Origin: Escherichia coli
Lineage (GTDB): Bacteria; Pseudomonadota; Gammaproteobacteria; Enterobacterales; Enterobacteriaceae
DNA: 64,000 nt
Assembly: GCF_044647545.1 (NCBI RefSeq)
Contig: NZ_CP172818.1
Direction: 5' to 3' (one strand)
The notes beneath the pieces were generated by a model that was given only the letters and a program-made list of their open reading frames with translations, searched no databases and had not been told where the DNA came from. This document shows positions 16,985 to 45,305 of this stretch, one piece after another. Each line of letters starts with the position of its first letter. The first letter of the stretch is position 1. Position numbers and translations under genes: made by a program.

Positions 16985-17023
16985 AATGCTACCCTTATAT
17001 CATTACTTTATAGTTTCCCAGTT

Positions 17024-18043: not shown

Positions 18044-19122
18044 TATTTCCTCCGGGAAATAGCAGAAATAATTACCTTATGTAATCTATCGTAATACTTC
18101 GATTGGTAAAATTCATCGATCGACGCAGGAATTTTTTCATGTTCGATATGAATTTCACCTGCTATATATTTATTTAGAAGAGTTACAAAACCAGCAATAT
18201 CTCCCGGTTGATACAGATGGCCATTGACATCAGGTTGAATAATGTCAGCAGGCCCGGAGACACAATCGGCACTGATACAAGGAATCCCCCACGACAAGGC
18301 TTCAAGTAGGGTCATTGGGAAACCTTCAAAAGATGACGTGAGCAATAACGCACTCACTTTTTCAATATCTTGCTGGACCAATTCCCAGGGATATTGTTGC
18401 CAACCATACCAGACAATTCGATCATCAATATTTAATTCTCTACCATAAGCCTGGCATTTTTCGAAATCGGAGCCATCACCCAATACATGGAGTTTCCAGT
18501 TACCTTTCGCTTGTGATAAGCCATCAAGCAGGTCTTTAACTCTTTTCTGGCCTTCAAATTTCATACGCCCAACATAAATAAACGTTGCCGTTTCACCTTC
18601 CTCGGGCGCGGGAATGACTGAGTCTTTAGTTTCGACGGGATTAAAAATAACATTTATCGTCGATTCTGCTACACCTCGATTAATCATTTGCTGTTTAATG
18701 CCAGAGCTGATTGCTAAATGATAGTCGGCACAGGTGATATATTCAGCATGTTTTTTGTGATCTAAAGAAAAATGTGGCCATGAAAATACTGGCATATCAA
18801 TTCCTGATTTTTTACGTGCTTTTGCGGCAAACAGGCAGGAGATCACATCAATACAAATAACGATATCTGGTTGGTACTCCTGAAGCCATTTACTTAGAGC
18901 ATGAATATGTTTCGCCCGACGCAAAAAACCTAAACGAATATTGGAAAATGAACATGAGTATTTAATACCTTCCAGCCATCCCTTATCCATTTTGTCATTA
19001 CGACAAAAGAAAAACATTTCACTTTGGATATGTTGTTGCCTGAAGGTAGTAATAACATCACGGATGACAGTTTCCATGCCGCCAAATCCAGAAACAGCTT
19101 CGCCGATAAACGCTATTTTCAT
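18043..19122 (-). CDS. waaB: LPS alpha-1,6-galactosyltransferase (GT4)
   Basis: ORF 18043..19152 trimmed to MKIAFIG start giving 359 aa; GT4 family; position as K-12. Confidence 0.85.
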   Translation of the reverse strand: MKIAFIGEAVSGFGGMETVIRDVITTFRQQHIQSEMFFFCRNDKMDKGWLEGIKYSCSFSNIRLGFLRRAKHIHALSKWLQEYQPDIVICIDVISCLFAAKARKKSGIDMPVFSWPHFSLDHKKHAEYITCADYHLAISSGIKQQMINRGVAESTINVIFNPVETKDSVIPAPEEGETATFIYVGRMKFEGQKRVKDLLDGLSQAKGNWKLHVLGDGSDFEKCQAYGRELNIDDRIVWYGWQQYPWELVQQDIEKVSALLLTSSFEGFPMTLLEALSWGIPCISADCVSGPADIIQPDVNGHLYQPGDIAGFVTLLNKYIAGEIHIEHEKIPASIDEFYQSKYYDRLHKVIISAISRRK

Positions 19123-19165
19123 AGAAACTCTCATTAATTGAGTAAAACTCACTGTTTTAACGGTT

Positions 19166-20101
19166 TTATTTGTCTATAAAATCAGAAACAATCGTTGACA
19201 TCATTTTATCTGGACTGAATTTATATAAACTATCATAATCCATTGGTTTAACAGATGAGTTAATAAAATACTCTAACTTATCCCAATCATCATGACCTAT
19301 TATAAAAAAGCGAGATTCACTATAGATTTCTGAACCAAATACATTTATATTATTAGTAATTAATTTTTTATTGAAAAATAGTGCCTCAAGTATACGAAGA
19401 GTCCAGCCAGATTGGTTTTCTTTGGTTATATCAACAATTATATTAGCATTTAATGTTCTTCTAATATTCTCTTCATAAGATATTTGTTTTTCAATCAAAT
19501 ACTTTGAAGTCGTAGATGATGTCTTATCTTTGACAACATTAAAATCTAGCTTACATCCTAGTGTTGTTAATCTCTCGGCTAACTCATTAATTATTTGAAG
19601 ACGCCCTTTATCACGACCAAGGAAAAAACATATTGGCTGGCTGTTATTTTTGTCAGATAAACTATAATTTCTAATTTCATCCATTCCTATAGGAAAAAAT
19701 TGTTCTATTGCCTTGATCTTTTCATTCCCTATAAATCTATGCTCAAAATCATATATAATATCGAAATAATTCGCGTTATCAAGAATAAAATCTTCGCCAA
19801 CAGTATTTCTTAGAAGCAAAACTTTATGACAGTTAATATTTTTTAATATTTGTTTATTGATACCTTTATTAACAACACTGTCATTAATGATAATTATGTC
19901 ATCTTTTTTAATATCATTGAGGTAATGCTTGATGAATAATCGCCCCAGCCATGCATTATCCATCCCTATTTTTGATATTTTTTTATTAATCCAGTTATAT
20001 TTTTTTGGTGTTGTTATATTTTTTATCTTGTACTTTTTTTTCAGGTACTGAATCATTTTTAATTCATAATCTGCAACCCAATTTATAAAATAAATAGTCA
20101 T
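19166..20101 (-). CDS. waaS: LPS core biosynthesis protein WaaS
   Basis: 311 aa ORF, very AT-rich; position and length as K-12 WaaS. Confidence 0.8.
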
Positions 20102-20137
20102 AATAAAGTTAGTTCCAGTACATACTAATAAATATTT

Positions 20138-20935
20138 TTATAATCCTTTGCGTTGTGTTCGCTCTTTAATACGCTCGGCCTTAACGCTTGCCATGTTCAA
20201 TAAATTCTGTTCAAGAGACAATATTTTGCGTAAAGGCATCCCAAAATACACTTTCATAAACCGCCAGATATCCCGCTGAGTCAGGCCGATATTCATCGAA
20301 GAAAAATAAAGCCCAATAAGATCTTTATCGCGCCAACGACGTGGAACGCGCGTGCGAAGCTGCGCCCGGTGCAGGTCAATTACTGAAATTTTTAACTCCT
20401 CTTCCTTACCGGAAAAAGGCAAGTGCAGCAGGAAATGACAGATATAACAGTCACGGTGGTTAATGCCCGCAGCATGCATATCGCGCACCATCGTCGCGAC
20501 ACGCTTAATAAGCATACGCTTTACGCGAACATCTGGTGGGTTGGTCGCCCAGTCAGCACAGTAATCTTCCAGACTGATGGTTGGTGTCAGATCTTCGGTA
20601 ATAATAAACGAGGTTCTGGTCAGCGGATTAATGCCTTTTTCGCCGAATGCCACCCCATACATAGTATCAACGCCGACATCCCGCAGTCGATGAATCGCAT
20701 TCCATTCGCGGTCTGCGCCTAATACTGGCATCCGCAATGAGAGTAAATTTTTGATTATCTCTTTCAGGGTCGTGCCGCGATGCCATTTGAGAAAATAGCT
20801 TTTGCCCGCCATTTCAAAGCGCAGAGTGCGGCGAGTTTCCAGTTCACGAAATACCTCACCCTGCAAGGTTTTAACTTCCTCAAAAGGATCTTTACCGCGC
20901 CATAACGTGGCAAACGGCTCTTTAAGTTCAACCAT
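20138..20935 (-). CDS. waaP: LPS core heptose(I) kinase
   Basis: Trimmed to [14 protein letters not shown] start giving 265 aa; kinase motifs ([11 protein letters not shown]). Confidence 0.9.
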
Positions 20936-22052
20936 CCAGACCACCCGTTATGATGTCCGCTGCTTTCTCTGGCAGACTGTATAAATCTTGTGTATCAGCA
21001 TAATGTCGCGCATTTTCTGCCCAGGCCTGGCGCAATGAAGATTGCGTTAACGCTTTGCGTAAAATCTCATTCAATGTTTCCTGGCGGAATGGCTCAGCAA
21101 TAGCCTCGCCGCAATTGGCGTCAACAATATAATGCGCATAGCCACAAACGGCTGTTGTTAGTACCGGTAATCCTGCAGTAATCGCTTCCAGCAGCACAAT
21201 TCCCGCCGCTTCCTGGTAGGCAGGATGAAGTAATAAATCCGCCGCCGCCATTAATTCCGAGACATCGTTGCGCCCCGAGAAGAAGTGAACATTACTGCGC
21301 ACGCCGCGTTTTTCTGCCAGCGCCTCAAATTTTCGCGGTTTATCCTGCCCAACAACATATAGTAATGTGTTGTGGCGCAGCGAATCCGGTAACGAAGCAA
21401 GTGCTTCAATGGAACGATCGACACCTTTACGCGTGAAGTCTGAACCGACCTGCAACAATAAATATTGTTGTTCGGTTATTCCATTCTTCTTACGGAAGAT
21501 TTCACGGCTATTCGCTGGTTGCTGGCTATATTTACGATCAGGATAAATCCCCGGTGGCAGAATATGAAAACGCTCCGCTTCAGTCTGATAATGTTTCTGG
21601 AAATCGGCGATTTGCTTATCTGTCAGCATCAGCAGCTGTGTCGGCTTGCCCTGTTCGAAGGTTGCCCGCTCAAAGGCGGCATAATGGCGATAACGTGACG
21701 TCAGGCGATAGAAAAAGCCTTTCTCCTGCGCTACTTTCTCGGCATAACAAACATCAGCGGCATAATAAACGTCCAGCCCCGGCATTTTATTAAATCCAAC
21801 GACTCTATCGACGGGGTATTCACGTAAATGTTTTTGCACCCAGGCAAAATATTCCGCATTGCGCCCGTGATTGGTATGCGATTTAACCGGCACTTTGATC
21901 AGTTCAAATACATCAGGGCATTCGCCTTCCCACGACTGGGTATAAACCCGAACATGATGACCTCGGGCGGCAACTGTCTGAGCAATACGCATAAAATCGC
22001 GCTGCAAACCGCCAAAGGGAAAATATTTATATAAACAAAAAGCAACGATCAT
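20928..22052 (-). CDS. waaG: LPS glucosyltransferase I (GT4)
   Basis: 374 aa ORF; overlaps waaP start and waaQ stop (translational coupling). Confidence 0.92.
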
Positions 22053-23107
22053 AACGACGTACCTGTCGTGGAGGAGGGAAGTAATTTATCGACAGCTGCA
22101 ATGACATCTGCCGCCGGAATAACCGAAAGATACATCTCATTTCGGTCACGCTGATCGCGCGTTGGCATTTCCCGGTAATCTCCCGCCCAGAATTGAATCA
22201 TGTTATTTGACCAGGGACGCCAGAAAATATGGTCTGTCGCACCAAACAGCGATATCAGTGGCGTATTAACTGCAGCGGCAATATGCGCCGGTGCGGAATC
22301 AACGCCAATAAACAGCTGCGCATGATCGATTAACGCACCAAGTTCCGGGAAGGTCACCTTTCCGGCCAGTGCCGTTACTGGTGGCGTCTGGCATCCCTGC
22401 GCAATTTCATTGACGCAGGCCAGATCGTCTTTATCTGGGCCGGACGTCAGAACGACTTCATAACCACGAGCATGTAAGGCATCAATCACAGCGGAAAACT
22501 TGGCGTTGTCCCAGCATTTGAAGATTTGCCGCGCCGTAGGTTGGATAACCACATAATTTTGTCCAACACCAGCGTGATCAAGTTCGCGACGCATACGTTT
22601 CCAGCTTGCAGGCGGGTAACTCATGGTTGTCTGCTTCACCAACGATTCAAGTCCCAATGGCGTCAGCACGGATAAGTTACTTTCCACCACATTTCCACCC
22701 TGCAACGGCACCAAATGAGTGAAACTATTACGCCAAAAAGCAGACTGCCGATGATGATAATCCTGGGAAATTTTCACACGGGCATTTAATAAGCGAACCA
22801 GTATAGCAACCATCCATTGATCGGTAAGATTAACGATAAGGTCATACTTATTGGCACGTAATATCTTGATGAGATGGAAAAAGTTGGCAATTTTTTCTGA
22901 GGCTTTTGCTTTTTTATTTTTTATGCCGTAGAGCGCGTTAATCTCTGGATTTTCAGACAGGATCGGGATGGTGTCCTGATAAAGCAGCACATCGATTTTT
23001 GCGTCAGGGTAATTTTTTTTCAGCGAACTAATGACGGGAGTAGTTAATAACATATCCCCATGAAAACGCATCTTAATGAGCAAAATTCTTCGAAATGGCT
23101 TATCCAC
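22049..23107 (-). CDS. waaQ: LPS heptosyltransferase III
   Basis: GT9 family; first gene of long operon; ORF starts with GTG at 23107 (352 codons); true start may be the in-frame TTG 24 nt downstream (344 aa). Confidence 0.88.
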   Translation of the reverse strand: MDKPFRRILLIKMRFHGDMLLTTPVISSLKKNYPDAKIDVLLYQDTIPILSENPEINALYGIKNKKAKASEKIANFFHLIKILRANKYDLIVNLTDQWMVAILVRLLNARVKISQDYHHRQSAFWRNSFTHLVPLQGGNVVESNLSVLTPLGLESLVKQTTMSYPPASWKRMRRELDHAGVGQNYVVIQPTARQIFKCWDNAKFSAVIDALHARGYEVVLTSGPDKDDLACVNEIAQGCQTPPVTALAGKVTFPELGALIDHAQLFIGVDSAPAHIAAAVNTPLISLFGATDHIFWRPWSNNMIQFWAGDYREMPTRDQRDRNEMYLSVIPAADVIAAVDKLLPSSTTGTSL

Positions 23108-23156
23108 AAGTAACTCTTTTTGTTGAGATTATCCGATTAAGGTGAAGCAGAAAAAG

Positions 23157-23168
23157 CACGCTACCGCC
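23157..23168 (-). promoter_or_regulatory. ops element (RfaH recruitment site) within the JUMPstart leader of the waaQ operon
   Basis: Minus-strand sequence GGCGGTAGCGTG matches the ops consensus GGCGGTAGnnTG, located ~50 nt upstream of the waaQ start inside a ~410 bp untranslated leader. Confidence 0.75.
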
Positions 23169-23519
23169 CCAGGCTCAACAGCTACCTGAATACTGATACC
23201 GCACTGATATTGACGCGCTAGTGTATCACTTCTTTCGCGGCAATCCGACCCGAATGATTTTTAAGCACATTGTTGATTTTCAATAAAGAAATCAATCAAA
23301 TAAAATCATTAGCAACCATATTCTTTTACTGTTGCTCTGCGATTCCTTCCTGCACGTACTGCAGAAATCAATGAATCGCATAAAAATACAAAAAAAGTAT
23401 AGATGTTCAGCAAGAATTGGCGGGTAAATTGCTATTTAAGTCAAAAACGGGAAAAGTAATGGTAAAGCCACAGCTAAATACATAGAATCCCCAGCACATC
23501 CATAAGTCAGCTATTTACT

Positions 23520-25284
<1,765 letters not shown>

Positions 25285-25322
25285 CGTTTATGCCGGATGG
25301 TATGCCATCCGGCTCGCATCAA

Positions 25323-26132
25323 TTACTTCTGGCACTGCCGACAATAAAACGTTGCCCGCTGCGCATGTTTAGTCGCCACAATTGGCGTACCGCACACCCG
25401 ACACGGCTCGCCTTTTCGCCCGTAAACCTGCAATTCCTGCGCGAAATAGCCCGGTTTACCATCACTTTGCAGAAAATCTTTCAGCGTTGTACCACCCTGC
25501 TCAATCGAACGCAGCAACACCGCTTTAATCACCCGAGCTAACAATTCACACTCTGCCAGCGACAGTGATGACGCCAGCCGATCCGGATGGATCCCCGCAG
25601 CAAACAGAGATTCGCTGGCATAGATATTCCCTACGCCTACCACCAGCTTGTTATCCATCAGCCATGGTTTAATCGCCGTTTTTTTCTTCGCGCACTTCTG
25701 ATGCAGGTACTCACCGTTGAAATCGTCGCTAAGCGGCTCCGGTCCAAGATGGGCCAGCACGTTGTGCCCTTCCAGCTCTTTGGTCCACAGCCAGGCACCA
25801 AAGCGGCGCGGATCGGTGTAGCGCAGCACTTTACCGTTGCTCATCACCAAATCAACATGGTCATGCTTTTCAGGGGGAAGTTCTTCTGGAAGGATGCGCA
25901 GGCTGCCAGACATCCCCAAATGAATGATAATCCAGCCCTCAGGCAGCTCCAGCAGCAGATATTTAGCCCGCCGCTGCACGCTAAGCACTGGTTGGTCGCT
26001 TAAACGGTAGATCTCTTCTGAAACCGGCCAGCGCAAGCGTCCGTTGCGCACCACCGCATGAAGAATGGTTGCACCAACGAGATGCGGTTCTATGCCGCGA
26101 CGGCTGGTTTCAACTTCGGGTAATTCAGGCAT
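25323..26132 (-). CDS. mutM: Formamidopyrimidine-DNA glycosylase
   Basis: 269 aa ORF starting MPELPEVE with C-terminal zinc finger (CRVCGTPI...CRQCQ). Confidence 0.95.
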
Positions 26133-26183
26133 AGCATCTCCAGGAATGAACAGATGCAGTCAATATGGGGGCAAGCAGATAAC

Positions 26184-26210
26184 AAAAAACCCCGCCGGAG
26201 CGAGGTTTTT
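26184..26210 (-). terminator. Putative rho-independent terminator after rpmG
   Basis: GC-rich hairpin flanked by A-run and T-run between the rpmG stop and mutM start. Confidence 0.5.
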
Positions 26211-26229
26211 CGTTACATCAAAGCGAGAA

Positions 26230-26400
<171 letters not shown>

Positions 26401-26417
26401 TTATTTCCTCTAAGTAC

Positions 26418-26675
<258 letters not shown>

Positions 26676-26870
26676 TTAGCTCGAGCTTCGTATGGGGTAT
26701 TGGCGCCTCGTCAGGCTTTACAGCCCGGTCATCGCAGTTCTATGTGAACTCTCGATTGCCAGGCCCAAATGCCAAACCCGAGATTCTCAAAGGTGGCGTA
26801 GTATACGCTGACTCAGCGATGTGCTCAAGTCCCGAACAGACAAAGATCCCGAAGGATCGCGCATAGCGGG

Positions 26871-27539
26871 TTAAATCCAGCCGCGTTCGGCAAAAGAAAC
26901 ATACTCTCCACGCCCAATTACGATATGGTCGAGCACGCGTAAATCCATGAACTGACAACTCTTTATTATCCGTTCAGTAATGAGTTTATCCGCTTTACTG
27001 GGTTCAGCACAACCCGAAGGGTGATTATGTGCAAGGATCAGCGCCGAGGCATTTATTTTTATCGCTTCGCGGATAATTTCCCGAGGATGGACTTCAACAT
27101 GGTTTAGCGTGCCGGAAAAAAGACGGCTATGCGTTATAACCCGGTGTTGTGAGTCGAGAAAGATCACCATAAAGATCTCCCGCTCCTCGCCCGTAAGCTG
27201 GCTTTGTAAAAATTCCCTCGTCATCTCCGGGCTGAGTAAAGGGCTTTCTTCACGCATCCGCACGTTGTAGTAACGCCGCGCCAGTTCGGCAATCCCCTTT
27301 AACTGGGCGAATTTCGCCACGCCAATTCCATGAACGCCACTAAACTGTTCATATTCAGAGGTTAACAAGCCATAAAGAGAGCCGAAATTCTCCAGCATCT
27401 CTTTTGCCAGGGTTAATACATCTTTACCGCGCGTTCCGGTACGCAGAAATAGCGCCAGCAGCTCGACATCCGTTAAGGCGCTAATACCAAACTTCAGCAT
27501 TTTTTCGCGCGGCATCAACAGCTGTGCATTGTTTTTCAC
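26871..27539 (-). CDS. yicR: UPF0758 family protein YicR (RadC-like JAB domain)
   Basis: ORF starts with GTG at 27545; likely start is the in-frame GTG two codons downstream ([13 protein letters not shown]..., 222 aa); JAMM-like HNHPSG motif. Confidence 0.88.
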
Positions 27540-27710
27540 CTTCACCTCCTTTGTGGTGCTCGCATCCTGTCATAGCCGTTCCGTTAAATCGACGGCCAGT
27601 TTTCAATCCTGGAAAGCGCCTCGCAAAGTGATTCTCAGGTGAAGGCACGACAACAAAAGTATTGTGATAAAATCGCCAACTTCTGGTGTCACCCAACAGG
27701 AAAAATCATC

Positions 27711-28931
27711 ATGAGCCTGGCCGGTAAAAAAATCGTTCTCGGCGTCAGCGGCGGTATTGCTGCCTATAAAACCCCTGAACTGGTGCGTCGTTTGCGCGAT
27801 CGCGGGGCCGACGTCCGCGTAGCCATGACCGAAGCGGCAAAAGCCTTTATCACCCCACTTAGCTTGCAGGCGGTTTCTGGTTATCCCGTTTCCGACAGTC
27901 TGCTGGACCCGGCAGCCGAAGCCGCTATGGGCCATATTGAGCTGGGTAAATGGGCTGATTTAGTGATTCTCGCCCCTGCCACGGCAGATTTGATTGCCCG
28001 TGTTGCTGCCGGAATGGCGAATGACCTGGTATCGACGATTTGTCTGGCTACACCTGCGCCTGTAGCCGTGCTCCCCGCCATGAACCAGCAGATGTACCGT
28101 GCCGCTGCCACGCAGCATAATTTAGAGGTGCTTGCTTCCCGTGGTTTGCTCATCTGGGGGCCAGACAGCGGCAGTCAGGCTTGTGGTGATATCGGCCCAG
28201 GGCGAATGCTCGATCCGTTAACCATTGTGGATATGGCGGTGGCGCATTTTTCGCCCGTCAACGACCTGAAACATCTGAACATTATGATTACCGCCGGTCC
28301 GACGCGTGAACCGCTCGATCCCGTGCGTTATATCTCTAATCACAGCTCCGGCAAGATGGGTTTTGCTATCGCCGCCGCCGCAGCCCGTCGTGGCGCGAAC
28401 GTCACGCTGGTATCAGGTCCGGTTTCACTACCGACGCCACCGTTTGTTAACCGTGTTGATGTGATGACCGCGCTGGAAATGGAAGCCGCCGTGAATGCAT
28501 CTGTACAGCAGCAAAATATTTTTATCGGTTGCGCCGCCGTGGCGGATTATCGCGCAGCTACCGTGGCCCCAGAGAAAATCAAAAAGCAGGCCACGCAGGG
28601 TGATGAATTAACAATAAAAATGGTTAAAAACCCCGATATCGTCGCAGGCGTTGCCGCACTAAAAGACCATCGACCCTACGTCGTTGGATTTGCCGCCGAA
28701 ACAAATAATGTGGAAGAATACGCTCGGCAAAAACGTATCCGTAAAAACCTTGATCTGATCTGCGCGAACGATGTTTCCCAGCCAACTCAAGGATTTAACA
28801 GCGACAACAACGCATTACACCTTTTCTGGCAGGACGGAGATAAAGTCTTACCGCTTGAGCGCAAAGAGCTCCTTGGCCAATTATTACTCGACGAGATCGT
28901 GACCCGTTATGATGAAAAAAATCGACGTTAA
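27711..28931 (+). CDS. coaBC: Bifunctional phosphopantothenoylcysteine decarboxylase / synthetase
   Basis: Trimmed to [20 protein letters not shown] start giving 406 aa; flavoprotein N-domain plus CoaB C-domain. Confidence 0.95.
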
Positions 28932-29367
28932 GATTCTGGACCCGCGCGTTGGGAAGGAATTTCCGCTCCCGACTTATGCCACCTCTGGCTCTGCCGGACT
29001 TGACCTGCGTGCCTGTCTCGACGACGCCGTAGAACTGGCTCCGGGTGACACTACGCTGGTTCCGACCGGGCTGGCGATTCATATTGCCGATCCTTCACTG
29101 GCGGCAATGATGCTGCCGCGCTCCGGATTGGGACATAAGCACGGTATCGTGCTTGGTAACCTGGTAGGATTGATCGATTCTGACTATCAGGGCCAGTTGA
29201 TGATTTCCGTGTGGAACCGTGGTCAGGACAGCTTCACCATTCAACCAGGCGAACGCATCGCCCAGATGATTTTTGTTCCGGTAGTACAGGCTGAATTTAA
29301 TCTGGTGGAAGATTTCGACGCCACCGACCGCGGTGAAGGCGGCTTTGGTCACTCTGGTCGTCAGTAA
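28909..29367 (+). CDS. dut: dUTP diphosphatase
   Basis: 152-codon [18 protein letters not shown]...; overlaps the 3' end of coaBC by 23 nt. Confidence 0.95.
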
Positions 29368-29473
29368 CACATACGCATCCGAATAACGTCATAACATAGC
29401 CGCAAACATTTCGTTTGCGGTCATAGCGTGGGTGCCGCCTGGCAAGTGCTTATTTTCAGGGGTATTTTGTAAC

Positions 29474-30070
29474 ATGGCAGAAAAACAAACTGCGAAAAGG
29501 AACCGTCGCGAGGAAATACTTCAGTCTCTGGCGCTGATGCTGGAATCCAGCGATGGAAGCCAACGTATCACGACGGCAAAACTGGCCGCCTCTGTCGGCG
29601 TTTCCGAAGCGGCACTGTATCGCCACTTCCCCAGTAAGACCCGCATGTTCGATAGCCTGATTGAGTTTATCGAAGATAGCCTGATTACTCGCATCAATCT
29701 GATTCTGAAAGATGAGAAGGACACCACAGCGCGCCTGCGTCTGATTGTGTTGCTGCTTCTCGGTTTTGGTGAGCGTAATCCTGGCCTGACCCGCATCCTC
29801 ACTGGTCATGCGCTAATGTTTGAACAGGATCGCCTGCAAGGGCGCATCAACCAGCTGTTCGAGCGTATTGAGGCGCAGTTGCGTCAGGTATTGCGTGAAA
29901 AGAGAATGCGTGAGGGTGAAGGTTACACCACCGATGAAACGCTGCTGGCAAGCCAGTTGCTGGCATTTTGTGAAGGTATGCTGTCACGCTTTGTCCGCAG
30001 CGAATTTAAATACCGCCCGACGGATGATTTTGACGCCCGCTGGCCGCTAATTGCCGCGCAGTTGCAGTAA
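29474..30070 (+). CDS. slmA: Nucleoid occlusion factor SlmA (TetR family)
   Basis: Trimmed to [16 protein letters not shown] start giving 198 aa; TetR-type HTH. Confidence 0.93.
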
Positions 30071-30108
30071 TATGACGTCCGGCATGATTATTCATCCAGC
30101 GAATATTT

Positions 30109-30750
30109 TTAAACGCCAAACTCTTCGCGATAGGCCTTAACCGCCGCCAGATGTTCCGCCATTTCCGGCTTCTCTTCCAGGTAAGCAATCAGGTCTTTCA
30201 GGGTGATGATAGAGATCACTTTGCAGTTGTAATCACGCTCAACTTCCTGAATTGCCGAAATCTCGCCGCGCCCCCGTTCCTGACGATCGAGCGAAATCAA
30301 TACGCCAGCAAGCGTCGCGCCATTGGCCTGAATAATTTCCATCGACTCGCGGATCGCCGTTCCGGCGGTGATCACATCATCCACCAGCATTACGCGTCCT
30401 TGTAACGCGCTACCGACCAGATTGCCACCTTCACCATGGTCTTTTGCTTCTTTGCGGTTAAAGCAGTACGGCAGGTCCAGGTCATGATGCTCCGCCAGCG
30501 CCACGGCAGTTGTGGTGGCAATCGGGATCCCTTTGTAAGCAGGGCCAAACAGCAGATCGAACTCAATGCCGGAATCCACCAATGCTTCAGCGTAAAAACG
30601 GCCTAACAGTGCCAGATCGCGCCCGGTATTAAACAGCCCGGCGTTGAAGAAATAGGGGCTTTTGCGCCCGGACTTCAACGTAAACTCGCCAAACTTTAAC
30701 ACCTGCTTGCTAAGCGCAAATTCAATAAACTGGCGCTGATATGGTTTCAT
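30109..30750 (-). CDS. pyrE: Orotate phosphoribosyltransferase
   Basis: Trimmed to [11 protein letters not shown] start giving 213 aa; PRPP-binding motif [13 protein letters not shown]. Confidence 0.95.
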
Positions 30751-30781
30751 GCCTTCGCTCCTCATCTTACTTTTCTACAGA

Positions 30782-30812
30782 CAAAAAAAAGGCGACTCAT
30801 CAGTCGCCTTAA
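30782..30812 (-). promoter_or_regulatory. pyrE attenuator (intrinsic terminator hairpin in the rph-pyrE intercistronic leader)
   Basis: Minus-strand aaggcgactgatgagtcgcctt hairpin followed by a T8 run, between rph stop (30816) and pyrE start (30750). Confidence 0.65.
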
Positions 30813-30815
30813 AAA

Positions 30816-31532
30816 TCAGTTTGCCAGCGCCGCCTTCTGCGTCGCTACAATGGATTCGATTCCCCCTCGGGCCAGCGCCAACAAGGTGAGTAATTCTTCG
30901 TGGGTGAACGGTTCGCCTTCTGCCGTCCCCTGCACTTCAATGATGCGCCCGTCTTCGGTCATCACTACGTTCATGTCGGTCTCTGCGGCTGAGTCTTCAA
31001 CGTATTCCAGATCGCAAACCGCTTCGCCGTTGACAATGCCGACAGAAACTGCGGCTACCATCCCTTTCATCGGGTTGGTTTTCAGCTTGCCGTTTTCCAC
31101 CAGCTTCTGTAGCGCATCTGCCAGCGCCACGCAGGCACCCGTAATCGACGCGGTACGCGTGCCACCATCAGCCTGAAGCACGTCGCAGTCCAGCGTAATG
31201 GTGAACTCACCCAGCGCTTTCAAATCTACTGCCGCACGAAGAGCACGGGCGATCAGACGCTGGATTTCCATGGTGCGTCCACCCTGCTTACCTTTCGCCG
31301 CTTCACGCGCGTTACGGGTGTGGGTAGAACGTGGCAGCATGCCGTACTCTGCGGTGATCCAGCCCTGGCCCTGACCTTTCAGGAAGCGCGGCACGCCTTC
31401 TTCAATAGAGGCGGTACACAATACTATGGTATCGCCAAATTCGACCAGCACCGAGCCTTCTGCATGTTTTGTATAGTTACGAGTCAGGGTAACGGGACGC
31501 ACCTGATTATTGCTACGGCCTGCTGGACGCAT
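30816..31532 (-). CDS. rph: Ribonuclease PH, apparently full length (238 aa, rph+)
   Basis: Trimmed to [14 protein letters not shown] start; reading frame open through 238 codons to a stop 65 nt upstream of pyrE. Confidence 0.93.
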
Positions 31533-31658
31533 ATTGAAATCTCCGGCTTGAAACAAATGTGGCTGCGCATTATACGGACTTCCGGCGGTTATTCCTATCC
31601 TGACAAGGCATCGATGGCTATAATCCTTCCACCTCTCCTTTTATAAACAGGAACGTCT

Positions 31659-32522
31659 ATGATCCGCAGTATGACCGCCTACGCCCGGCGTGAAATCAAG
31701 GGTGAATGGGGGAGCGCAACCTGGGAAATGCGCTCGGTAAACCAGCGTTATCTGGAAACTTACTTTCGTCTGCCGGAGCAGTTCCGTAGCCTTGAACCTG
31801 TCGTTCGTGAGCGTATTCGTTCTCGCCTGACGCGCGGTAAAGTGGAATGTACCCTGCGCTATGAGCCAGATGTTAGCGCGCAAGGTGAGCTGATCCTCAA
31901 CGAAAAACTGGCTAAACAGCTGGTAACTGCCGCGAACTGGGTAAAAATGCAGAGCGACGAAGGAGAAATCAACCCGGTTGATATTCTACGCTGGCCGGGC
32001 GTGATGGCAGCCCAGGAGCAGGATCTCGACGCGATTGCCGCTGAAATTCTCGCGGCGTTGGATGGTACGCTGGACGACTTTATCATCGCACGTGAAACCG
32101 AAGGTCAGGCGCTGAAAGCATTGATCGAGCAGCGTCTGGAAGTCGTCAGCGCCGAAGTGGTCAAAGTCCGCGCCCATATGCCGGAAATCCTGCAATGGCA
32201 GCGTGAGCGTCTGGTCGCGAAGCTGGAAGATGCTCAGGTGCAACTGGAAAACAACCGTCTGGAGCAGGAGTTGGTTCTGCTGGCACAACGAATTGACGTT
32301 GCCGAAGAACTTGACCGCCTCGAAGCGCATGTCAAAGAGACCTACAACATTCTGAAGAAAAAAGAAGCGGTTGGCCGTCGTCTGGACTTTATGATGCAGG
32401 AGTTCAACCGCGAGTCGAACACTCTTGCTTCGAAGTCTATCAATGCCGAAGTGACAAACTCCGCGATTGAGCTGAAAGTGTTGATTGAGCAGATGCGCGA
32501 GCAGATTCAGAACATTGAATAA
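31659..32522 (+). CDS. yicC: YicC family stress-induced protein
   Basis: 287 aa ORF; synteny after rph. Confidence 0.9.
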   Translation: MIRSMTAYARREIKGEWGSATWEMRSVNQRYLETYFRLPEQFRSLEPVVRERIRSRLTRGKVECTLRYEPDVSAQGELILNEKLAKQLVTAANWVKMQSDEGEINPVDILRWPGVMAAQEQDLDAIAAEILAALDGTLDDFIIARETEGQALKALIEQRLEVVSAEVVKVRAHMPEILQWQRERLVAKLEDAQVQLENNRLEQELVLLAQRIDVAEELDRLEAHVKETYNILKKKEAVGRRLDFMMQEFNRESNTLASKSINAEVTNSAIELKVLIEQMREQIQNIE

Positions 32523-32557
32523 CTCGTAACGCCAATTCTTACTTTTCAGCCTTCACA

Positions 32558-32592
32558 AATGCCGCCCACTCAAACAGAGCGGCATTTTTCTT
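32558..32592 (+). terminator. Rho-independent terminator after yicC
   Basis: aaatgccgc...gcggcattt stem followed by a T-run, 36 nt after the yicC stop. Confidence 0.6.
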
Positions 32593-32742
32593 CCCCGCAA
32601 CTTCAATTCTGTTTTGCGTGCCTGCTCCAGATTTTGCGATGTTTTTTTGCCCAGCACACTGAGAACGTGAGATACTCACAACTGTATATAAACACAGTTA
32701 CAGATTTACTTTCTTTGCAATCGATATCACATGGAGTGGGCA

Positions 32743-33567
32743 ATGAACGAACATCATCAACCTTTTGAAGAGATACGGCATTATGGCACTGAAGGGCAAG
32801 AATTTTGGTCAGCGAGAGAATTGGCACCGTTACTGGATTATCGGGACTGGCGCAATTTTCAAAAGGTACTGGCCCGCGCGACTCAAGCGTGCGAAGCCAG
32901 CAATCAAGCTGCATCTGACCATTTCGTTGAAACCACCAAAATGGTTGTATTAGGTTCAGGGGCTCAACGAGAACTTGAAGATGTTCATCTCTCCCGCTAT
33001 GCCTGTTACCTGGTAGTACAAAACGGCGACCCTGCGAAACCGGTTATTGCAGTAGGGCAAACTTATTTTGCTATCCAGACCCGACGGCAGGAGCTGGCTG
33101 ACGATGAAGCTTTCAGGCAACTTCGTGAAGACGAAAAGCGTCTTTTTCTGAGAAATGAGTTGAAAGAACATAACAAACAATTAGTTGAGGCAGCGCAGCA
33201 AGCTGGGGTAGCGACAGCTATCGATTTCGCCATATTTCAGAATCATGGTTACCGGGGACTGTATGGTGGATTAGATCAGAAAGCCATCCATCAGCGGAAG
33301 GGGCTGAAAAAGAGTCAGAAGATCCTGGATCATATGGGTTCAACAGAACTGGCGGCTAATCTCTTTCGAGCTACCCAAACAGAAGAAAAACTCAAGCGGG
33401 ATGGCGTGAATTCAAAACAGCAAGCTAACACCACACACTTTGACGTGGGTCGCAAGGTGAGGCAAACCATTCAGGAACTTGGCGGAACCATGCCTGAGGA
33501 GTTGCCGACCCCGCAGGTCAGCATCAAGCAGTTGGAAAACAGTGTAAAAATTACAGAGAAAAAATAG
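32743..33567 (+). CDS. dinD: DNA damage-inducible protein D
   Basis: Trimmed to MNEHHQPFEEIRHYG start giving 274 aa; synteny. Confidence 0.88.
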   Translation: MNEHHQPFEEIRHYGTEGQEFWSARELAPLLDYRDWRNFQKVLARATQACEASNQAASDHFVETTKMVVLGSGAQRELEDVHLSRYACYLVVQNGDPAKPVIAVGQTYFAIQTRRQELADDEAFRQLREDEKRLFLRNELKEHNKQLVEAAQQAGVATAIDFAIFQNHGYRGLYGGLDQKAIHQRKGLKKSQKILDHMGSTELAANLFRATQTEEKLKRDGVNSKQQANTTHFDVGRKVRQTIQELGGTMPEELPTPQVSIKQLENSVKITEKK

Positions 33568-33857
33568 CAGAAACTAAAAACTCTTTTTGATGATTGAGAC
33601 ACCCGATGCGTAAGCCAAGGTCCAGGTGCAGTGAACACAATGGCTAACATTGCACCTTTCTTTTCCACCCCTCAGTTTTAACCTACTTTTTCTTATGCAT
33701 TTTCTCAGACAAGAAGTCAGAAGAATGCATCTACGCTACAGAAAACAACGATTTCACATAACTAAAAATTATCAATTTCCTCTCACCTTAAAAAATCTCA
33801 ATCGTGACAATGCGCACAAATCGCTACCCTGCCAGACAGATTTTTAGGGAGAGAGCC

Positions 33858-36246
<2,389 letters not shown>

Positions 36247-36270
36247 GAATCGTCTTTATTGCAGTGAATC

Positions 36271-37035
<765 letters not shown>

Positions 37036-37089
37036 ACCTGATTTCAGTATCATGCCCAGTCATTTCTTCACCTGTGGAGCTTTTTAAGT

Positions 37090-37365
37090 ATGGCACGCGT
37101 AACTGTTCAGGACGCTGTAGAGAAAATTGGTAACCGTTTTGACCTGGTACTGGTCGCCGCGCGTCGCGCTCGTCAGATGCAGGTAGGCGGAAAGGATCCG
37201 CTGGTACCGGAAGAAAACGATAAAACCACTGTAATCGCGCTGCGCGAAATCGAAGAAGGTCTGATCAACAACCAGATCCTCGACGTTCGCGAACGCCAGG
37301 AACAGCAAGAGCAGGAAGCCGCTGAATTACAAGCCGTTACCGCTATTGCTGAAGGTCGTCGTTAA
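37090..37365 (+). CDS. rpoZ: RNA polymerase omega subunit
   Basis: 91 aa [32 protein letters not shown]. Confidence 0.95.
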
Positions 37366-37383
37366 TCACAAAGCGGGTCGCCC

Positions 37384-39492
37384 TTGTATCTGTTTGAAAG
37401 CCTGAATCAGCTGATTCAAAACTACCTGCCGGAAGACCAAATCAAGCGTCTGCGGCAGGCGTATCTCGTTGCACGTGATGCTCACGAGGGGCAAACACGT
37501 TCAAGCGGTGAACCCTATATCACGCACCCGGTGGCGGTTGCCTGCATTCTGGCCGAGATGAAACTCGACTATGAAACGCTGATGGCGGCGCTGCTGCATG
37601 ATGTGATTGAAGATACACCCGCCACCTACCAGGACATGGAACAGCTTTTTGGTAAAAGCGTCGCCGAGCTGGTAGAGGGGGTGTCGAAACTTGATAAGCT
37701 CAAGTTCCGCGATAAGAAAGAGGCGCAGGCCGAAAACTTTCGCAAGATGATTATGGCGATGGTGCAGGATATCCGCGTCATTCTCATCAAACTTGCCGAC
37801 CGTACCCACAACATGCGCACGCTGGGCTCACTTCGCCCGGACAAACGTCGCCGCATCGCCCGTGAAACCCTCGAAATTTACAGCCCGCTGGCACACCGTT
37901 TAGGTATCCACCACATTAAAACCGAACTCGAAGAGCTGGGTTTTGAGGCGCTGTATCCCAACCGTTATCGCGTAATCAAAGAAGTGGTGAAAGCCGCGCG
38001 CGGCAACCGTAAAGAGATGATCCAGAAGATTCTTTCTGAAATCGAAGGGCGTTTGCAGGAAGCGGGAATACCGTGCCGCGTCAGTGGTCGCGAGAAGCAT
38101 CTTTATTCGATTTACTGCAAAATGGTGCTCAAAGAGCAGCGTTTTCACTCAATCATGGACATCTACGCCTTCCGCGTGATCGTCAATGATTCCGACACCT
38201 GTTATCGCGTGCTCGGGCAAATGCATAGCCTGTACAAGCCGCGTCCGGGTCGCGTAAAAGATTACATCGCCATTCCAAAAGCGAACGGCTATCAGTCTTT
38301 GCACACCTCGATGATTGGCCCGCACGGCGTGCCGGTTGAGGTCCAGATCCGTACCGAAGATATGGATCAGATGGCAGAGATGGGTGTTGCCGCGCACTGG
38401 GCTTATAAAGAGCACGGCGAAACCAGTACTACCGCACAAATCCGCGCCCAGCGCTGGATGCAAAGCCTGCTGGAGCTGCAACAGAGCGCCGGTAGTTCGT
38501 TTGAATTTATCGAGAGCGTTAAATCCGATCTCTTCCCCGATGAGATTTACGTTTTCACACCGGAAGGGCGCATTGTAGAGCTGCCTGCCGGTGCAACGCC
38601 CGTCGACTTCGCTTATGCGGTGCATACCGATATCGGCCATGCCTGCGTGGGCGCGCGTGTCGACCGTCAGCCTTACCCGCTGTCGCAGCCGCTGACCAGC
38701 GGTCAAACCGTTGAAATCATTACCGCACCGGGCGCTCGCCCGAATGCCGCGTGGCTGAACTTTGTCGTCAGCTCGAAAGCGCGCGCCAAAATTCGTCAGT
38801 TGCTGAAAAACCTCAAGCGTGATGATTCTGTTAGTCTGGGCCGTCGTCTGCTCAACCATGCGTTGGGTGGCAGCCGCAAGCTCAATGAAATCCCGCAGGA
38901 AAATATTCAGCGCGAGCTGGACCGCATGAAGCTGGCAACGCTTGACGATCTGCTGGCTGAAATCGGCCTTGGTAACGCTATGAGCGTGGTGGTCGCGAAA
39001 AATCTGCAACATGGGGACGCCTCCATTCCACCGGCAACCCAAAGTCACGGACATCTGCCCATTAAAGGTGCCGATGGCGTGCTGATCACCTTTGCGAAAT
39101 GCTGCCGCCCTATTCCTGGCGACCCGATTATCGCCCACGTCAGCCCCGGTAAAGGTCTGGTGATCCACCATGAATCCTGCCGTAACATCCGTGGCTACCA
39201 GAAAGAGCCAGAGAAGTTTATGGCTGTGGAATGGGATAAAGAGACGGCGCAGGAGTTCATCACCGAAATCAAGGTGGAGATGTTCAATCATCAGGGCGCG
39301 CTGGCAAACCTGACAGCGGCAATTAACACCACCACCTCGAATATTCAAAGTTTGAATACGGAAGAGAAAGATGGTCGCGTCTACAGCGCCTTTATTCGTC
39401 TGACCGCCCGTGACCGTGTGCATCTGGCGAATATCATGCGCAAAATCCGCGTGATGCCAGACGTGATTAAAGTCACCCGAAACCGAAATTAA
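37384..39492 (+). CDS. spoT: Bifunctional (p)ppGpp synthetase II / pyrophosphohydrolase
   Basis: 702 aa ORF with HD hydrolase domain (HD motif), synthetase domain, TGS and ACT regions; rpoZ-spoT-trmH-recG operon order. Confidence 0.95.
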   Translation: MYLFESLNQLIQNYLPEDQIKRLRQAYLVARDAHEGQTRSSGEPYITHPVAVACILAEMKLDYETLMAALLHDVIEDTPATYQDMEQLFGKSVAELVEGVSKLDKLKFRDKKEAQAENFRKMIMAMVQDIRVILIKLADRTHNMRTLGSLRPDKRRRIARETLEIYSPLAHRLGIHHIKTELEELGFEALYPNRYRVIKEVVKAARGNRKEMIQKILSEIEGRLQEAGIPCRVSGREKHLYSIYCKMVLKEQRFHSIMDIYAFRVIVNDSDTCYRVLGQMHSLYKPRPGRVKDYIAIPKANGYQSLHTSMIGPHGVPVEVQIRTEDMDQMAEMGVAAHWAYKEHGETSTTAQIRAQRWMQSLLELQQSAGSSFEFIESVKSDLFPDEIYVFTPEGRIVELPAGATPVDFAYAVHTDIGHACVGARVDRQPYPLSQPLTSGQTVEIITAPGARPNAAWLNFVVSSKARAKIRQLLKNLKRDDSVSLGRRLLNHALGGSRKLNEIPQENIQRELDRMKLATLDDLLAEIGLGNAMSVVVAKNLQHGDASIPPATQSHGHLPIKGADGVLITFAKCCRPIPGDPIIAHVSPGKGLVIHHESCRNIRGYQKEPEKFMAVEWDKETAQEFITEIKVEMFNHQGALANLTAAINTTTSNIQSLNTEEKDGRVYSAFIRLTARDRVHLANIMRKIRVMPDVIKVTRNRN

Positions 39493-39498
39493 TGTTTT

Positions 39499-40188
39499 AT
39501 GAACCCAACACGTTATGCACGTATCTGCGAAATGCTCGCCAGGCGGCAGCCTGATCTGACCGTCTGCATGGAGCAGGTCCACAAACCTCATAACGTTTCT
39601 GCGATTATTCGTACCGCAGATGCCGTTGGTGTACATGAAGTTCATGCTGTCTGGCCTGGCAGTCGGATGCGCACCATGGCTTCGGCAGCTGCGGGTAGTA
39701 ACAGCTGGGTACAGGTGAAAACGCACCGCACCATTGGCGATGCCGTCGCTCATCTGAAAGGCCAGGGCATGCAGATTCTGGCAACCCATCTTTCTGATAA
39801 CGCTGTCGATTTCCGCGAAATTGATTACACTCGCCCGACCTGTATTTTGATGGGACAGGAGAAAACAGGCATCACGCAGGAAGCGTTGGCCCTGGCGGAT
39901 CGGGACATCATCATTCCGATGATTGGCATGGTGCAATCGCTGAATGTTTCCGTTGCCTCAGCCCTCATTCTTTACGAAGCCCAGCGCCAGCGGCAAAATG
40001 CGGGCATGTACCTGCGTGAAAACAGCATGTTGCCGGAAGCAGAGCAACAACGCCTGTTGTTTGAAGGCGGCTATCCGGTGCTGGCGAAAGTCGCAAAACG
40101 CAAAGGCCTGCCTTACCCCCACGTCAATCAGCAGGGCGAAATTGAAGCTGATGCCGACTGGTGGGCTACCATGCAGGCTGCAGGATAA
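39499..40188 (+). CDS. trmH: tRNA (Gm18) 2'-O-methyltransferase
   Basis: 229 aa SpoU-family ORF; synteny. Confidence 0.93.
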   Translation: MNPTRYARICEMLARRQPDLTVCMEQVHKPHNVSAIIRTADAVGVHEVHAVWPGSRMRTMASAAAGSNSWVQVKTHRTIGDAVAHLKGQGMQILATHLSDNAVDFREIDYTRPTCILMGQEKTGITQEALALADRDIIIPMIGMVQSLNVSVASALILYEAQRQRQNAGMYLRENSMLPEAEQQRLLFEGGYPVLAKVAKRKGLPYPHVNQQGEIEADADWWATMQAAG

Positions 40189-40193
40189 GTGCC

Positions 40194-42275
40194 ATGAAAG
40201 GTCGCCTGTTAGATGCTGTCCCGCTCAGTTCCCTAACGGGCGTTGGCGCAGCGCTTAGTAACAAGCTGGCGAAAATCAACCTGCATACCGTGCAGGATCT
40301 ACTCTTACACCTTCCCCTGCGCTACGAAGATCGCACCCATCTCTACCCCATCGGAGAACTACTACCGGGCGTTTATGCCACGGTGGAAGGCGAAGTGCTG
40401 AACTGCAATATCTCCTTCGGCGGTCGGCGGATGATGACCTGCCAGATCAGCGACGGTTCCGGCATTCTCACCATGCGCTTTTTCAACTTCAACGCGGCAA
40501 TGAAAAATAGCCTGGCGACGGGCCGCCGCGTGCTGGCCTATGGAGAAGCAAAGCGCGGTAAATATGGCGCGGAGATGATCCACCCGGAATACCGCGTGCA
40601 GGGCGATCTCAGTACGCCAGAGTTGCAGGAAACGCTTACGCCGGTTTATCCAACAACCGAAGGCGTAAAGCAGGCCACGCTGCGTAAATTAACCGACCAG
40701 GCGCTTGATCTGCTCGACACCTGCGCCATTGAAGAACTCCTGCCGCCGGAACTGTCACAAGGAATGATGACGCTACCGGAAGCGTTGCGCACTTTGCACC
40801 GCCCGCCGCCGACGCTACAGCTTAGCGATCTGGACACCGGCCAGCATCCGGCACAACGCCGTCTGATTCTGGAAGAACTGCTGGCGCACAACCTCAGCAT
40901 GTTAGCCTTACGTGCCGGAGCACAGCGTTTTCATGCCCAGCCACTGAGCGCCAATGACGCGCTGAAAAATAAACTCCTCGCCGCCTTACCGTTCAAGCCA
41001 ACGGGCGCACAGGCACGCGTAGCGGCGGAGATCGAGCGCGATATGGCGCTGGATGTGCCGATGATGCGCCTGGTACAGGGCGATGTAGGTTCCGGTAAAA
41101 CGCTGGTCGCCGCCCTCGCCGCGCTGCGTGCGATTGCCCACGGCAAACAGGTGGCATTGATGGCACCAACCGAATTACTCGCCGAACAGCACGCCAATAA
41201 CTTCCGTAACTGGTTTGCACCGCTCGGTATCGAAGTGGGCTGGCTCGCCGGTAGGCAGAAAGGTAAAGCGCGGCTGGCACAGCAGGAAGCCATCGCCAGC
41301 GGTCAGGTGCAGATGATTGTCGGAACACACGCCATCTTCCAGGAACAGGTGCAGTTTAACGGTCTGGCGCTGGTGATTATCGACGAACAGCATCGTTTTG
41401 GCGTGCATCAGCGTCTGGCGTTATGGGAGAAAGGCCAGCAGCAGGGCTTCCATCCGCATCAGTTGATCATGACCGCCACGCCCATCCCCCGCACGCTGGC
41501 GATGACTGCGTATGCTGATCTCGATACCTCGGTGATAGATGAGCTGCCGCCAGGCCGCACGCCAGTGACTACGGTCGCTATTCCTGATACCCGCCGTACC
41601 GACATTATTGACCGCGTGCGCCACGCCTGCATAACTGAAGGTCGTCAGGCATACTGGGTTTGTACGTTGATTGAAGAGTCGGAATTGCTGGAAGCGCAGG
41701 CGGCGGAAGCAACCTGGGAAGAGTTGAAACTGGCGTTGCCGGAACTGAACGTCGGCCTGGTACACGGGCGGATGAAACCTGCCGATAAACAGGCGGTGAT
41801 GGCGTCGTTTAAACAAGGTGAACTACACCTGCTGGTTGCCACTACCGTTATTGAAGTCGGTGTTGATGTGCCTAACGCCAGTCTGATGATTATCGAAAAC
41901 CCTGAGCGTCTGGGTCTGGCGCAGTTACACCAGCTTCGCGGGCGTGTAGGTCGTGGTGCGGTGGCTTCTCACTGCGTGCTGCTCTACAAAACGCCGCTCT
42001 CCAAAACCGCGCAAATTCGGCTGCAAGTGCTGCGCGACAGCAACGACGGTTTTGTGATTGCACAGAAAGACTTAGAGATTCGCGGCCCTGGCGAATTGTT
42101 AGGTACGCGTCAGACGGGTAATGCTGAATTTAAAGTGGCGGATTTACTGCGCGATCAGGCGATGATCCCGGAAGTTCAGCGCCTGGCGCGACATATTCAC
42201 GAACGTTACCCACAACAGGCAAAAGCCCTGATAGAACGCTGGATGCCGGAGACGGAACGTTACTCGAATGCGTAA
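40194..42275 (+). CDS. recG: ATP-dependent DNA helicase RecG
   Basis: Trimmed to MKGRLLDAVPLSSLTGVG start giving 693 aa; Walker A GDVGSGKT, DEQH box. Confidence 0.95.
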   Translation: MKGRLLDAVPLSSLTGVGAALSNKLAKINLHTVQDLLLHLPLRYEDRTHLYPIGELLPGVYATVEGEVLNCNISFGGRRMMTCQISDGSGILTMRFFNFNAAMKNSLATGRRVLAYGEAKRGKYGAEMIHPEYRVQGDLSTPELQETLTPVYPTTEGVKQATLRKLTDQALDLLDTCAIEELLPPELSQGMMTLPEALRTLHRPPPTLQLSDLDTGQHPAQRRLILEELLAHNLSMLALRAGAQRFHAQPLSANDALKNKLLAALPFKPTGAQARVAAEIERDMALDVPMMRLVQGDVGSGKTLVAALAALRAIAHGKQVALMAPTELLAEQHANNFRNWFAPLGIEVGWLAGRQKGKARLAQQEAIASGQVQMIVGTHAIFQEQVQFNGLALVIIDEQHRFGVHQRLALWEKGQQQGFHPHQLIMTATPIPRTLAMTAYADLDTSVIDELPPGRTPVTTVAIPDTRRTDIIDRVRHACITEGRQAYWVCTLIEESELLEAQAAEATWEELKLALPELNVGLVHGRMKPADKQAVMASFKQGELHLLVATTVIEVGVDVPNASLMIIENPERLGLAQLHQLRGRVGRGAVASHCVLLYKTPLSKTAQIRLQVLRDSNDGFVIAQKDLEIRGPGELLGTRQTGNAEFKVADLLRDQAMIPEVQRLARHIHERYPQQAKALIERWMPETERYSNA

Positions 42276-42304
42276 AAGGCGGCGGTGAGAAGACCGCCGC
42301 TTCA
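42274..42304. terminator. Hairpin between convergent recG and gltS (putative bidirectional terminator)
   Basis: ggcggcggt...accgccgc stem flanked by A4 on one side and T-rich sequence on the other. Confidence 0.4.
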
Positions 42305-42308
42305 TCGG

Positions 42309-43514
42309 TTAACCGGCAAAAATCGGCAACATCAAATACAGCTTAATCACCAGCGCATTGACGATATCGATAAAGAACGCACCGACCATCGGCACGACCA
42401 GGAACGCCATGTGCGACGGGCCAAAGCGTTCAGTGATCGCCTGCATGTTAGCGATTGCCGTTGGTGTCGCGCCAAGGCCAAAGCCACAGTGACCCGCAGC
42501 CAGCACTGCCGCATCGTAGTTTTTGCCCATCATGCGCCAGGTAACGAAGATGGCATACAACGCCATGAAGATGGTCTGTACCACCAGAATCGCCAGCATC
42601 GGCAGCGCCAGCGAAGCCAGCTCCCACAGTTTCAGCCCCATCAGCGCCATCGCCAGGAACAACGACAGGCTTACGTTACCCAGCACGGATACCGCTCGCT
42701 CAAAGACGCGGTAAAAGCCCATCATTGACAGACCGTTGCTCAGAATCACGCCAACAAATAGTACACAGACGAAGGTCGGTAGTTCAAAAGCAGTACCAGC
42801 CAAAAGTTGCGCAACAATTTTCCCCACCGTCAGGCAGATAGCAATCAGCGCGATAGTTTCAATCAGCACCAGCGAGGTGATCATGCGGCCCACATCCGGC
42901 TTTTCGAACGCAGTCGGAACTTCCTGGTCATCCGGAATACCGTTCGGTGTGGTGGAGTGTTTCACCAGATAGCGCGCCACCGGACCGCCAATCAAGCCGC
43001 CCAGCACCAAACCGAACGTTGCACAGGCCATCGCCACTTCTGTCGCATTGGTGAAGCCATAACGTTCAATGAACAATTTACTCCATGCAGCTCCCGTACC
43101 GTGACCGCCGGAAAGCGTAATAGAACCGGCCAACAGCCCCATCAGCGGATCAAGCCCTAACAGGCTAGCCATACCAATGCCAATGGCATTTTGCATCACC
43201 AACAGGCCAACAACCACAATCAAGAAGATGCCAACCACACGCCCACCGGCACGCAAACTGGCAATGTTGGCGTTCAGGCCAATGGTGGCGAAGAAAGCCA
43301 GCATCAACGGATCGCGCAGGGACATATCAAAGTTGACTTCCCAGCCCATGCTTTTTTTCAGTATCAGCAGCGCCAGCGCCACTAATAAACCACCCGCAAC
43401 AGGTTCCGGTATGGTGTATTTCTTCAAAAAGGAGACGGAATGGACCAACTTGCGCCCGAGCAGCAACGTCAGCGTTGCGGCAACAAGCGTTGCTAAAGTA
43501 TCGAGATGAAACAT
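42309..43514 (-). CDS. gltS: Sodium/glutamate symporter
   Basis: 401 aa polytopic membrane ORF; synteny. Confidence 0.93.
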   Translation of the reverse strand: MFHLDTLATLVAATLTLLLGRKLVHSVSFLKKYTIPEPVAGGLLVALALLILKKSMGWEVNFDMSLRDPLMLAFFATIGLNANIASLRAGGRVVGIFLIVVVGLLVMQNAIGIGMASLLGLDPLMGLLAGSITLSGGHGTGAAWSKLFIERYGFTNATEVAMACATFGLVLGGLIGGPVARYLVKHSTTPNGIPDDQEVPTAFEKPDVGRMITSLVLIETIALIAICLTVGKIVAQLLAGTAFELPTFVCVLFVGVILSNGLSMMGFYRVFERAVSVLGNVSLSLFLAMALMGLKLWELASLALPMLAILVVQTIFMALYAIFVTWRMMGKNYDAAVLAAGHCGFGLGATPTAIANMQAITERFGPSHMAFLVVPMVGAFFIDIVNALVIKLYLMLPIFAG

Positions 43515-45185: not shown

Positions 45186-45305
45186 TTCACTGGCGGCGGT
45201 AAGATAATTACCGCCGCAGTCTCACCTCTTTCACCATTCCCGCCTTGAGGATTGCGCGTAAATCGTGCATAACTCCCTTATGTGCATTTCACGGGATGGA
45301 AGACC

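Follow-up and report, generated by a model that had tools for sequence, protein, structure and literature searches.

The rph-pyrE region of the Escherichia coli DNA analysed here, a stretch of 64,000 nucleotides that we refer to as the window, very probably represents the rph-pyrE operon in its ordinary wild-type form, from a natural strain that is not K-12 and has an ST648-like backbone. The window has a functional rph-pyrE arrangement, as judged by the open reading frame, the family membership of the encoded protein, the distance between the rph stop codon and the attenuator hairpin and an attenuator sequence that is identical to the K-12 one (Table 1). The presence of an intact rph gene in this place is in itself already known biology, and the rph-1 allele, with which it was compared, is well documented as an oddity of a single laboratory lineage of K-12.

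Table 1 Features of the rph-pyrE region of the window
Feature	Position	Strand	Evidence
rph, RNase PH, 238 codons followed by TGA (30816..30818)	30816..31532	-	Open reading frame, translation, TIGR01966
pyrE, orotate phosphoribosyltransferase, 213 amino acids	30109..30750	-	TIGR00336, 240.6 bits
pyrE attenuator hairpin, AAGGCGACU-GAUG-AGUCGCCUU, 9-bp stem, 4-nt loop	30789..30810	-	Terminator scan, RNA fold
U-run after the hairpin	30783..30788	-	Terminator scan; T8 at 30783..30790 if the last two bases of the stem are included
Five-G run (CCCCC on the plus strand), rph nt 667-671, codons 223-224; wild-type state at the rph-1 deletion site	30862..30866	-	Alignment to MG1655
Codon 36 of rph, ATA (Ile) in place of AAA (Lys), K36I, SNP at 31426	31425..31427	-	Alignment to ST648

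The rph reading frame and the pyrE attenuator

RNase PH, a 3'-5' exoribonuclease, acts by phosphorolysis and trims the precursors of tRNAs. In the window, translation of the minus-strand open reading frame that is opened by the ATG at 31532 revealed no internal stop codon over 238 residues. The protein was recognised by the NCBIfam RNase PH equivalog profile TIGR01966 with 377.2 bits, the curated cut-off being 141.5 bits, and residues 2-236 correspond to positions 1-235 of the 236 positions of the profile. The claim of the first-pass annotation that rph is intact and consists of 238 codons was thus confirmed by the position of the TGA stop codon and by the full-length match to the family. The interval 30750..31532, which had been given for this claim, is correct in reaching from the initial base of pyrE to the start codon of rph, but the strand is the minus strand. 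Moreover, residues 1-237 of Rph align with the solved RNase PH structures 1r6l, 1oyp and 3b4t (E values from 5e-103 to 1e-79), and the solved homologues that were aligned are those of Pseudomonas aeruginosa, Bacillus subtilis and Mycobacterium tuberculosis. The domains PF01138 and PF03725 are annotated on a protein that is identical to the Rph of the window. The motif at residues 84-94 and the sequence DGGTRTAS (residues 122-129) are both present and aligned with their counterparts in the homologues from the PDB. Following structural work on the enzymes from B. subtilis and P. aeruginosa, we take R86, T125 and R126, of which the latter two belong to DGGTRTA, to be the phosphate-binding residues, and all three are present in the window. 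The RNase PH of the window should be active.

The G·C base pair that is missing in rph-1 had been predicted to be retained in the window. In the alignment to MG1655 that the first-pass annotation had proposed, to which the wild strain 06-00048 was added, MG1655 reads CCCGA-GGGG, whereas CCCGAGGGGG is present in both the window and strain 06-00048. Thus, the prediction was correct, with GGGGG in the window and GGGG in MG1655. The rph-1 allele of the K-12 strains MG1655, W3110 and EMG2 belongs to the same gene at the same locus, and its attenuator and pyrE leader are identical to those of the window. However, one G·C pair of the G-run is deleted in rph-1 and the frame is shifted from codon 224, whereas the window contains the full run and encodes 238 amino acids. 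The truncation of Rph in MG1655, which the annotation had mentioned, was also found, as the rph-1 product comprises 228 amino acids and ends at a premature TAG.

The occurrence of rph-1 was assessed in 5,426 complete E. coli genomes using a 43-mer across the deletion junction, for which a megablast seed is possible only with the deletion. The junction was detected in 169 genomes, and all 60 matches that were listed are K-12 laboratory derivatives (e.g. MG1655, W3110, BW25113, J53, HMS174 and MFDpir). The rph locus itself was found in 5,424 of the 5,426 genomes. Because the junction is limited to so few genomes, with K-12 derivatives making up all the matches listed, intact rph is the default of the species. 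It follows that an intact rph gene has almost no diagnostic value as a strain marker, since almost every E. coli other than the laboratory strains of K-12 has it. The K-12 line WG1 is also rph+ (PMC9997739), and so is the K-12 line C600, which served as an rph+ donor (PMC3378859). Passages in the literature that refer to Jensen (1993) state that rph-1 abolishes RNase PH activity and lowers the expression of pyrE (PMC3378859, PMC9997739, PMC5933015). Furthermore, when MG1655 adapts to minimal glucose medium, the change that arises most often was described as a reversion or bypass of rph-1 (PMC5933015).

The spacer between rph and pyrE (30751..30815) comprises exactly 65 nt, which is the distance that had been annotated between the rph stop codon and pyrE. 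A GAGGAG Shine-Dalgarno sequence is located 7 nt upstream of the pyrE ATG, and PyrE and its MG1655 counterpart show 100% protein identity (tblastn). The stem of the attenuator is present in both the MFE and the centroid RNA folds, and the three-way alignment revealed that the window and MG1655 are the same, base for base, from the rph stop codon to the pyrE start. The earlier claim that the hairpin and the T-run between the two genes are intact is therefore supported by the terminator scan, the RNA folds and the identity to MG1655. Likewise, the UTP-sensitive rph-pyrE attenuator of K-12 and that of the window share the hairpin, the U-run and the distances to the rph stop codon and the pyrE start without any sequence difference. 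By contrast, the place at which translation ends differs, because the hairpin begins 6 nt after the TGA in the window and 35 nt after the premature TAG of rph-1 in MG1655. An Rfam scan of positions 29000..33000 (E<=1) yielded no family for the pyrE attenuator, the sole match being a meaningless eukaryotic lncRNA, and a simple promoter scan upstream of rph did not find a consensus sigma-70 site.

The UTP-sensitive transcription attenuation of pyrE was reportedly worked out in the K-12 sequence by Bonekamp and co-workers in 1984 (cited in PMC5933015), and Jensen is said to have described in 1993 that the rph-1 allele causes the loss of RNase PH activity and a low expression of pyrE (cited in PMC9997739 and PMC3378859). 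According to this established mechanism, the last codons of rph double as the pyrE leader. At low UTP levels, RNA polymerase is slow and a ribosome close behind it reaches the rph stop codon and blocks the hairpin, which allows read-through into pyrE. At high UTP levels, the polymerase outruns the ribosome, and the formation of the hairpin and the U-run causes termination. With a distance of 6 nt, the 5' arm of the hairpin is inside the footprint of the terminating ribosome, whereas it is beyond its reach at 35 nt. In K-12 strains with rph-1, the ribosomes halt 35 nt short of the hairpin, and efficient termination whatever the UTP level leaves pyrE under-expressed. For the window, we infer the UTP-sensitive coupling as well as the enzymatic activity from published work and from the identity with the characterised K-12 element. 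Given the position of the hairpin 6 nt after the rph stop codon, the expression of pyrE should be normal and responsive to UTP. Pyrimidine regulation should be that of the wild type, and the partial pyrimidine starvation of MG1655 would not be expected.

The K36I substitution in RNase PH

The closest known counterpart is the wild-type RNase PH of E. coli, for instance WP_001247093.1, as in the strains ST648 and 06-00048. The length of 238 amino acids, the stop codon, the site upstream of pyrE and the 65-nt spacer are all alike, and the two proteins are one residue apart, which is the exchange K36I. At the DNA level, the rph gene of the window shows one difference to that of ST648 and seven to that of 06-00048. 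A 41-mer of the K36I allele was absent from the 5,426 complete E. coli genomes. The exact protein is recorded as WP_400165090.1 on an E. coli contig of 4.50 Mb, and it is also encoded on three contigs from metagenomes or read sets (L008, L009 and L010). These contigs represent three synonymous backgrounds, namely that shared by the window and L009, that of L008 and that of L010, which are 0, 13 and 17 sites away from the window. They could reflect recurrence or an old rare allele. A sequencing error was rejected as the source of K36I, as the allele occurs in independent assemblies.

The exchange removes a basic residue from the conserved G-x-T-K-V-L-C strand, and it could be argued that it reduces or abolishes the RNase PH activity, while the regulation of pyrE would stay normal with the usual stop codon being reached. 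Several observations point in this direction. The K36I SNP is one of only two mismatches between the window and ST648 over 17 kb (30097..47016), none of the complete genomes carries the allele, and the four closest solved RNase PH homologues have a lysine at position 36. Moreover, the three synonymous backgrounds could mean that the change was selected recurrently. Among 87 diverse full-length representatives of RNase PH, position 36 is occupied by R (28), K (20), H (15), Q (9), I (3) and E (3), and a basic or polar residue of the kind R, K, H or Q is thus present in 72 of them. However, the same alignment contains three enzymes with isoleucine at this position, whereas the neighbouring residues G33 and T35 show no variation or almost none. 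The idea that K36 is an invariant residue was therefore discarded. In addition, the phosphate-binding residues R86, T125 and R126 of the structural work on the B. subtilis enzyme are all present and do not lie close to position 36 in the sequence, and three sightings among about 15 billion proteins are compatible with neutral rare variation. Taken together, an impaired enzyme is unlikely, and K36I is probably tolerated because position 36 varies across the RNase PH family. Still somewhat less likely is the possibility that K36I is a recurrent, non-neutral change by which the activity of RNase PH is altered or lowered in some natural strains of E. coli. If this were true, K36I would be a natural counterpart of the rph-1 loss in the laboratory, with the attenuation of pyrE left untouched.

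Strain background and flanking loci

Over the 64 kb, the window is 95.8-97.7% identical to MG1655 per segment (blastn), and outside the waa block the identity ranges from 95 to 99% per kb. By contrast, the identity to strain ST648 (NZ_CP008697.1) amounts to 99.9-100% in the segments 1..11862, 20242..55857 and about 58000..64000, and the closest complete genomes are those of ST648-type strains. Because of this difference in the identity of the backbone, the source is, on sequence grounds, not a K-12 strain of any lineage. The first-pass annotation had argued that the DNA does not come from a K-12 strain of the MG1655 lineage, which is true but understated, and the K-12 frame of reference turned out to be misleading. 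The absence of htrL, which had been used for this argument, was also found, as 1.29 kb of MG1655 (3792651-3793938) are replaced by about 62 bp at 8862..8923 of the window. This gap is located between kbl and rfaD, and ST648 is arranged alike. Since ST648 also lacks htrL, its absence is a trait of the lineage rather than a strain-specific deletion. An origin outside the sampled E. coli or from Shigella (98.9% for the best match) was considered and rejected, because the retron insertion splits the query in the closest genomes and lowers their rank.

It is very unlikely that the DNA comes from a derivative of K-12 or from a hybrid with K-12, for instance an rph+ line or the product of a laboratory cross. 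An argument for such an origin is the waa locus, because positions 11878..20248 match MG1655 without a single nucleotide mismatch over 8.4 kb. WaaL, WaaU, WaaZ, WaaY, WaaJ, WaaO, WaaB and WaaS are 100% identical to those of MG1655 at the protein and DNA levels, and the assignment of the core to the K-12 type was correct, as it holds for all eight outer-core proteins. ST648 has a different core type at this position, and the backbone around the block, which is about 100% ST648-like, differs from K-12 by 2-4%. Moreover, rph+ lines of K-12 such as WG1 (PMC9997739) and C600 (PMC3378859) are known. However, the K-12 origin is contradicted by the sequence outside the waa block, for which the identity is 99.9-100% to ST648 but 95-99% to MG1655. 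The K-12-specific SNPs to the left of the block (11815, 11851 and 11877) are absent, although a laboratory cross would normally import part of the K-12 flank, and K-12 has another allele of the slmA-pyrE spacer. Furthermore, a waa block with at least 99% identity is present in 458 of the 5,426 genomes, which include isolates from dog, pork, pig faeces and cattle, whereas the rph-1 junction occurs in 169. The K-12-type outer core is thus not specific to K-12. Because the block is common in natural isolates and the adjoining K-12-specific SNPs are missing, it looks like a natural cassette allele or exchange and not like K-12 ancestry. For strain typing, the window can be described as an ST648-like segment with a K-12-type outer-core cassette.

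The inner-core genes waaP, waaG and waaQ (20141..23071), which adjoin the K-12-identical block, are very divergent from K-12 and encode proteins that are 90% (WaaP), 90% (WaaG) and 73% (WaaQ) identical to those of K-12, and they are identical to the genes of ST648. The waaQ gene is annotated as frameshifted in ST648 and can be read through in the window, and 1-bp indels in T-runs at 22910 and 23013 distinguish the window from ST648.

On the other side of pyrE, the slmA-pyrE spacer (30071..30108) is a 38-nt allele, which is present in none of the 5,426 complete E. coli genomes. Retron Ec107 is said to have been located between pyrE and ttk/slmA by Herzer and co-workers in 1992; here, this siting is supported by a PADLOC match and by the annotated position in ST648 only. 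In ST648 and in contig L009, a 1.3-kb element with a retron Ec107-type reverse transcriptase occupies the slmA-pyrE site, and the reverse transcriptase of ST648 matched PADLOC with an E value of 3e-132. None of the 82 closest genomes (at least 99% identity) showed an unsplit, near-identical match across slmA-pyrE. As a full-length match of this kind was missing, an insertion seems to be present at the slmA-pyrE site in all of the 82 genomes. The right edge of the spacer, ATATTT, is common to the allele of the window and the retron-bearing allele, which suggests that the spacer of the window is the pre-insertion, unoccupied retron site of this lineage. The rph allele of contig L009 is likewise K36I, yet this contig contains the retron.

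Two islands of ST648 are absent from the window. One of 6.7 kb, with PTS-fructose-like, aldolase, ROK and lyxose-isomerase genes, is located between yicH and yicI in ST648 and is missing at 47016|47017. At 55857..55901, between yicS and nepI, a 16.6-kb island is missing, which in ST648 contains genes for a T3SS chaperone and a translocon, eilA and an iatC gene that is disrupted by IS1.

A degraded stretch in the assembly and the five-G run

The relE/parE-HTH toxin-antitoxin locus, which in ST648 is located between nepI and yicN, is present in the window in a degraded form (57360..57985). The sequence gradually collapses into homopolymers of A, C and G (G16 at 57938; A12 at 57790 and 57808), and the perfect match to ST648 resumes abruptly at about 57986. 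It is the sole degraded stretch in the window, and the composition of the rph region is normal. Most likely, the degraded stretch is an artefact of base calling or gap closure in the source assembly. For the curation of the record, this stretch, the private K36I allele and the empty retron Ec107 site are more useful than the finding that rph is intact.

Because the degraded stretch calls for caution with single bases in this record, the five-G run and K36I were both cross-checked against independent sequences. That the run is a homopolymer miscall and that the rph gene of the real strain is frameshifted is extremely improbable in spite of the homopolymer-rich stretch in the record and several 1-bp homopolymer differences to ST648 elsewhere, since five G residues are also present in ST648, 06-00048 and contigs L008 to L010, which all encode 238 amino acids, the four-G junction is confined to 169 genomes with only K-12 laboratory derivatives among the matches listed, the density of homopolymers around rph is normal, and a correct call is by far more probable than a miscall that happens to reinstate precisely the frame of the wild type.
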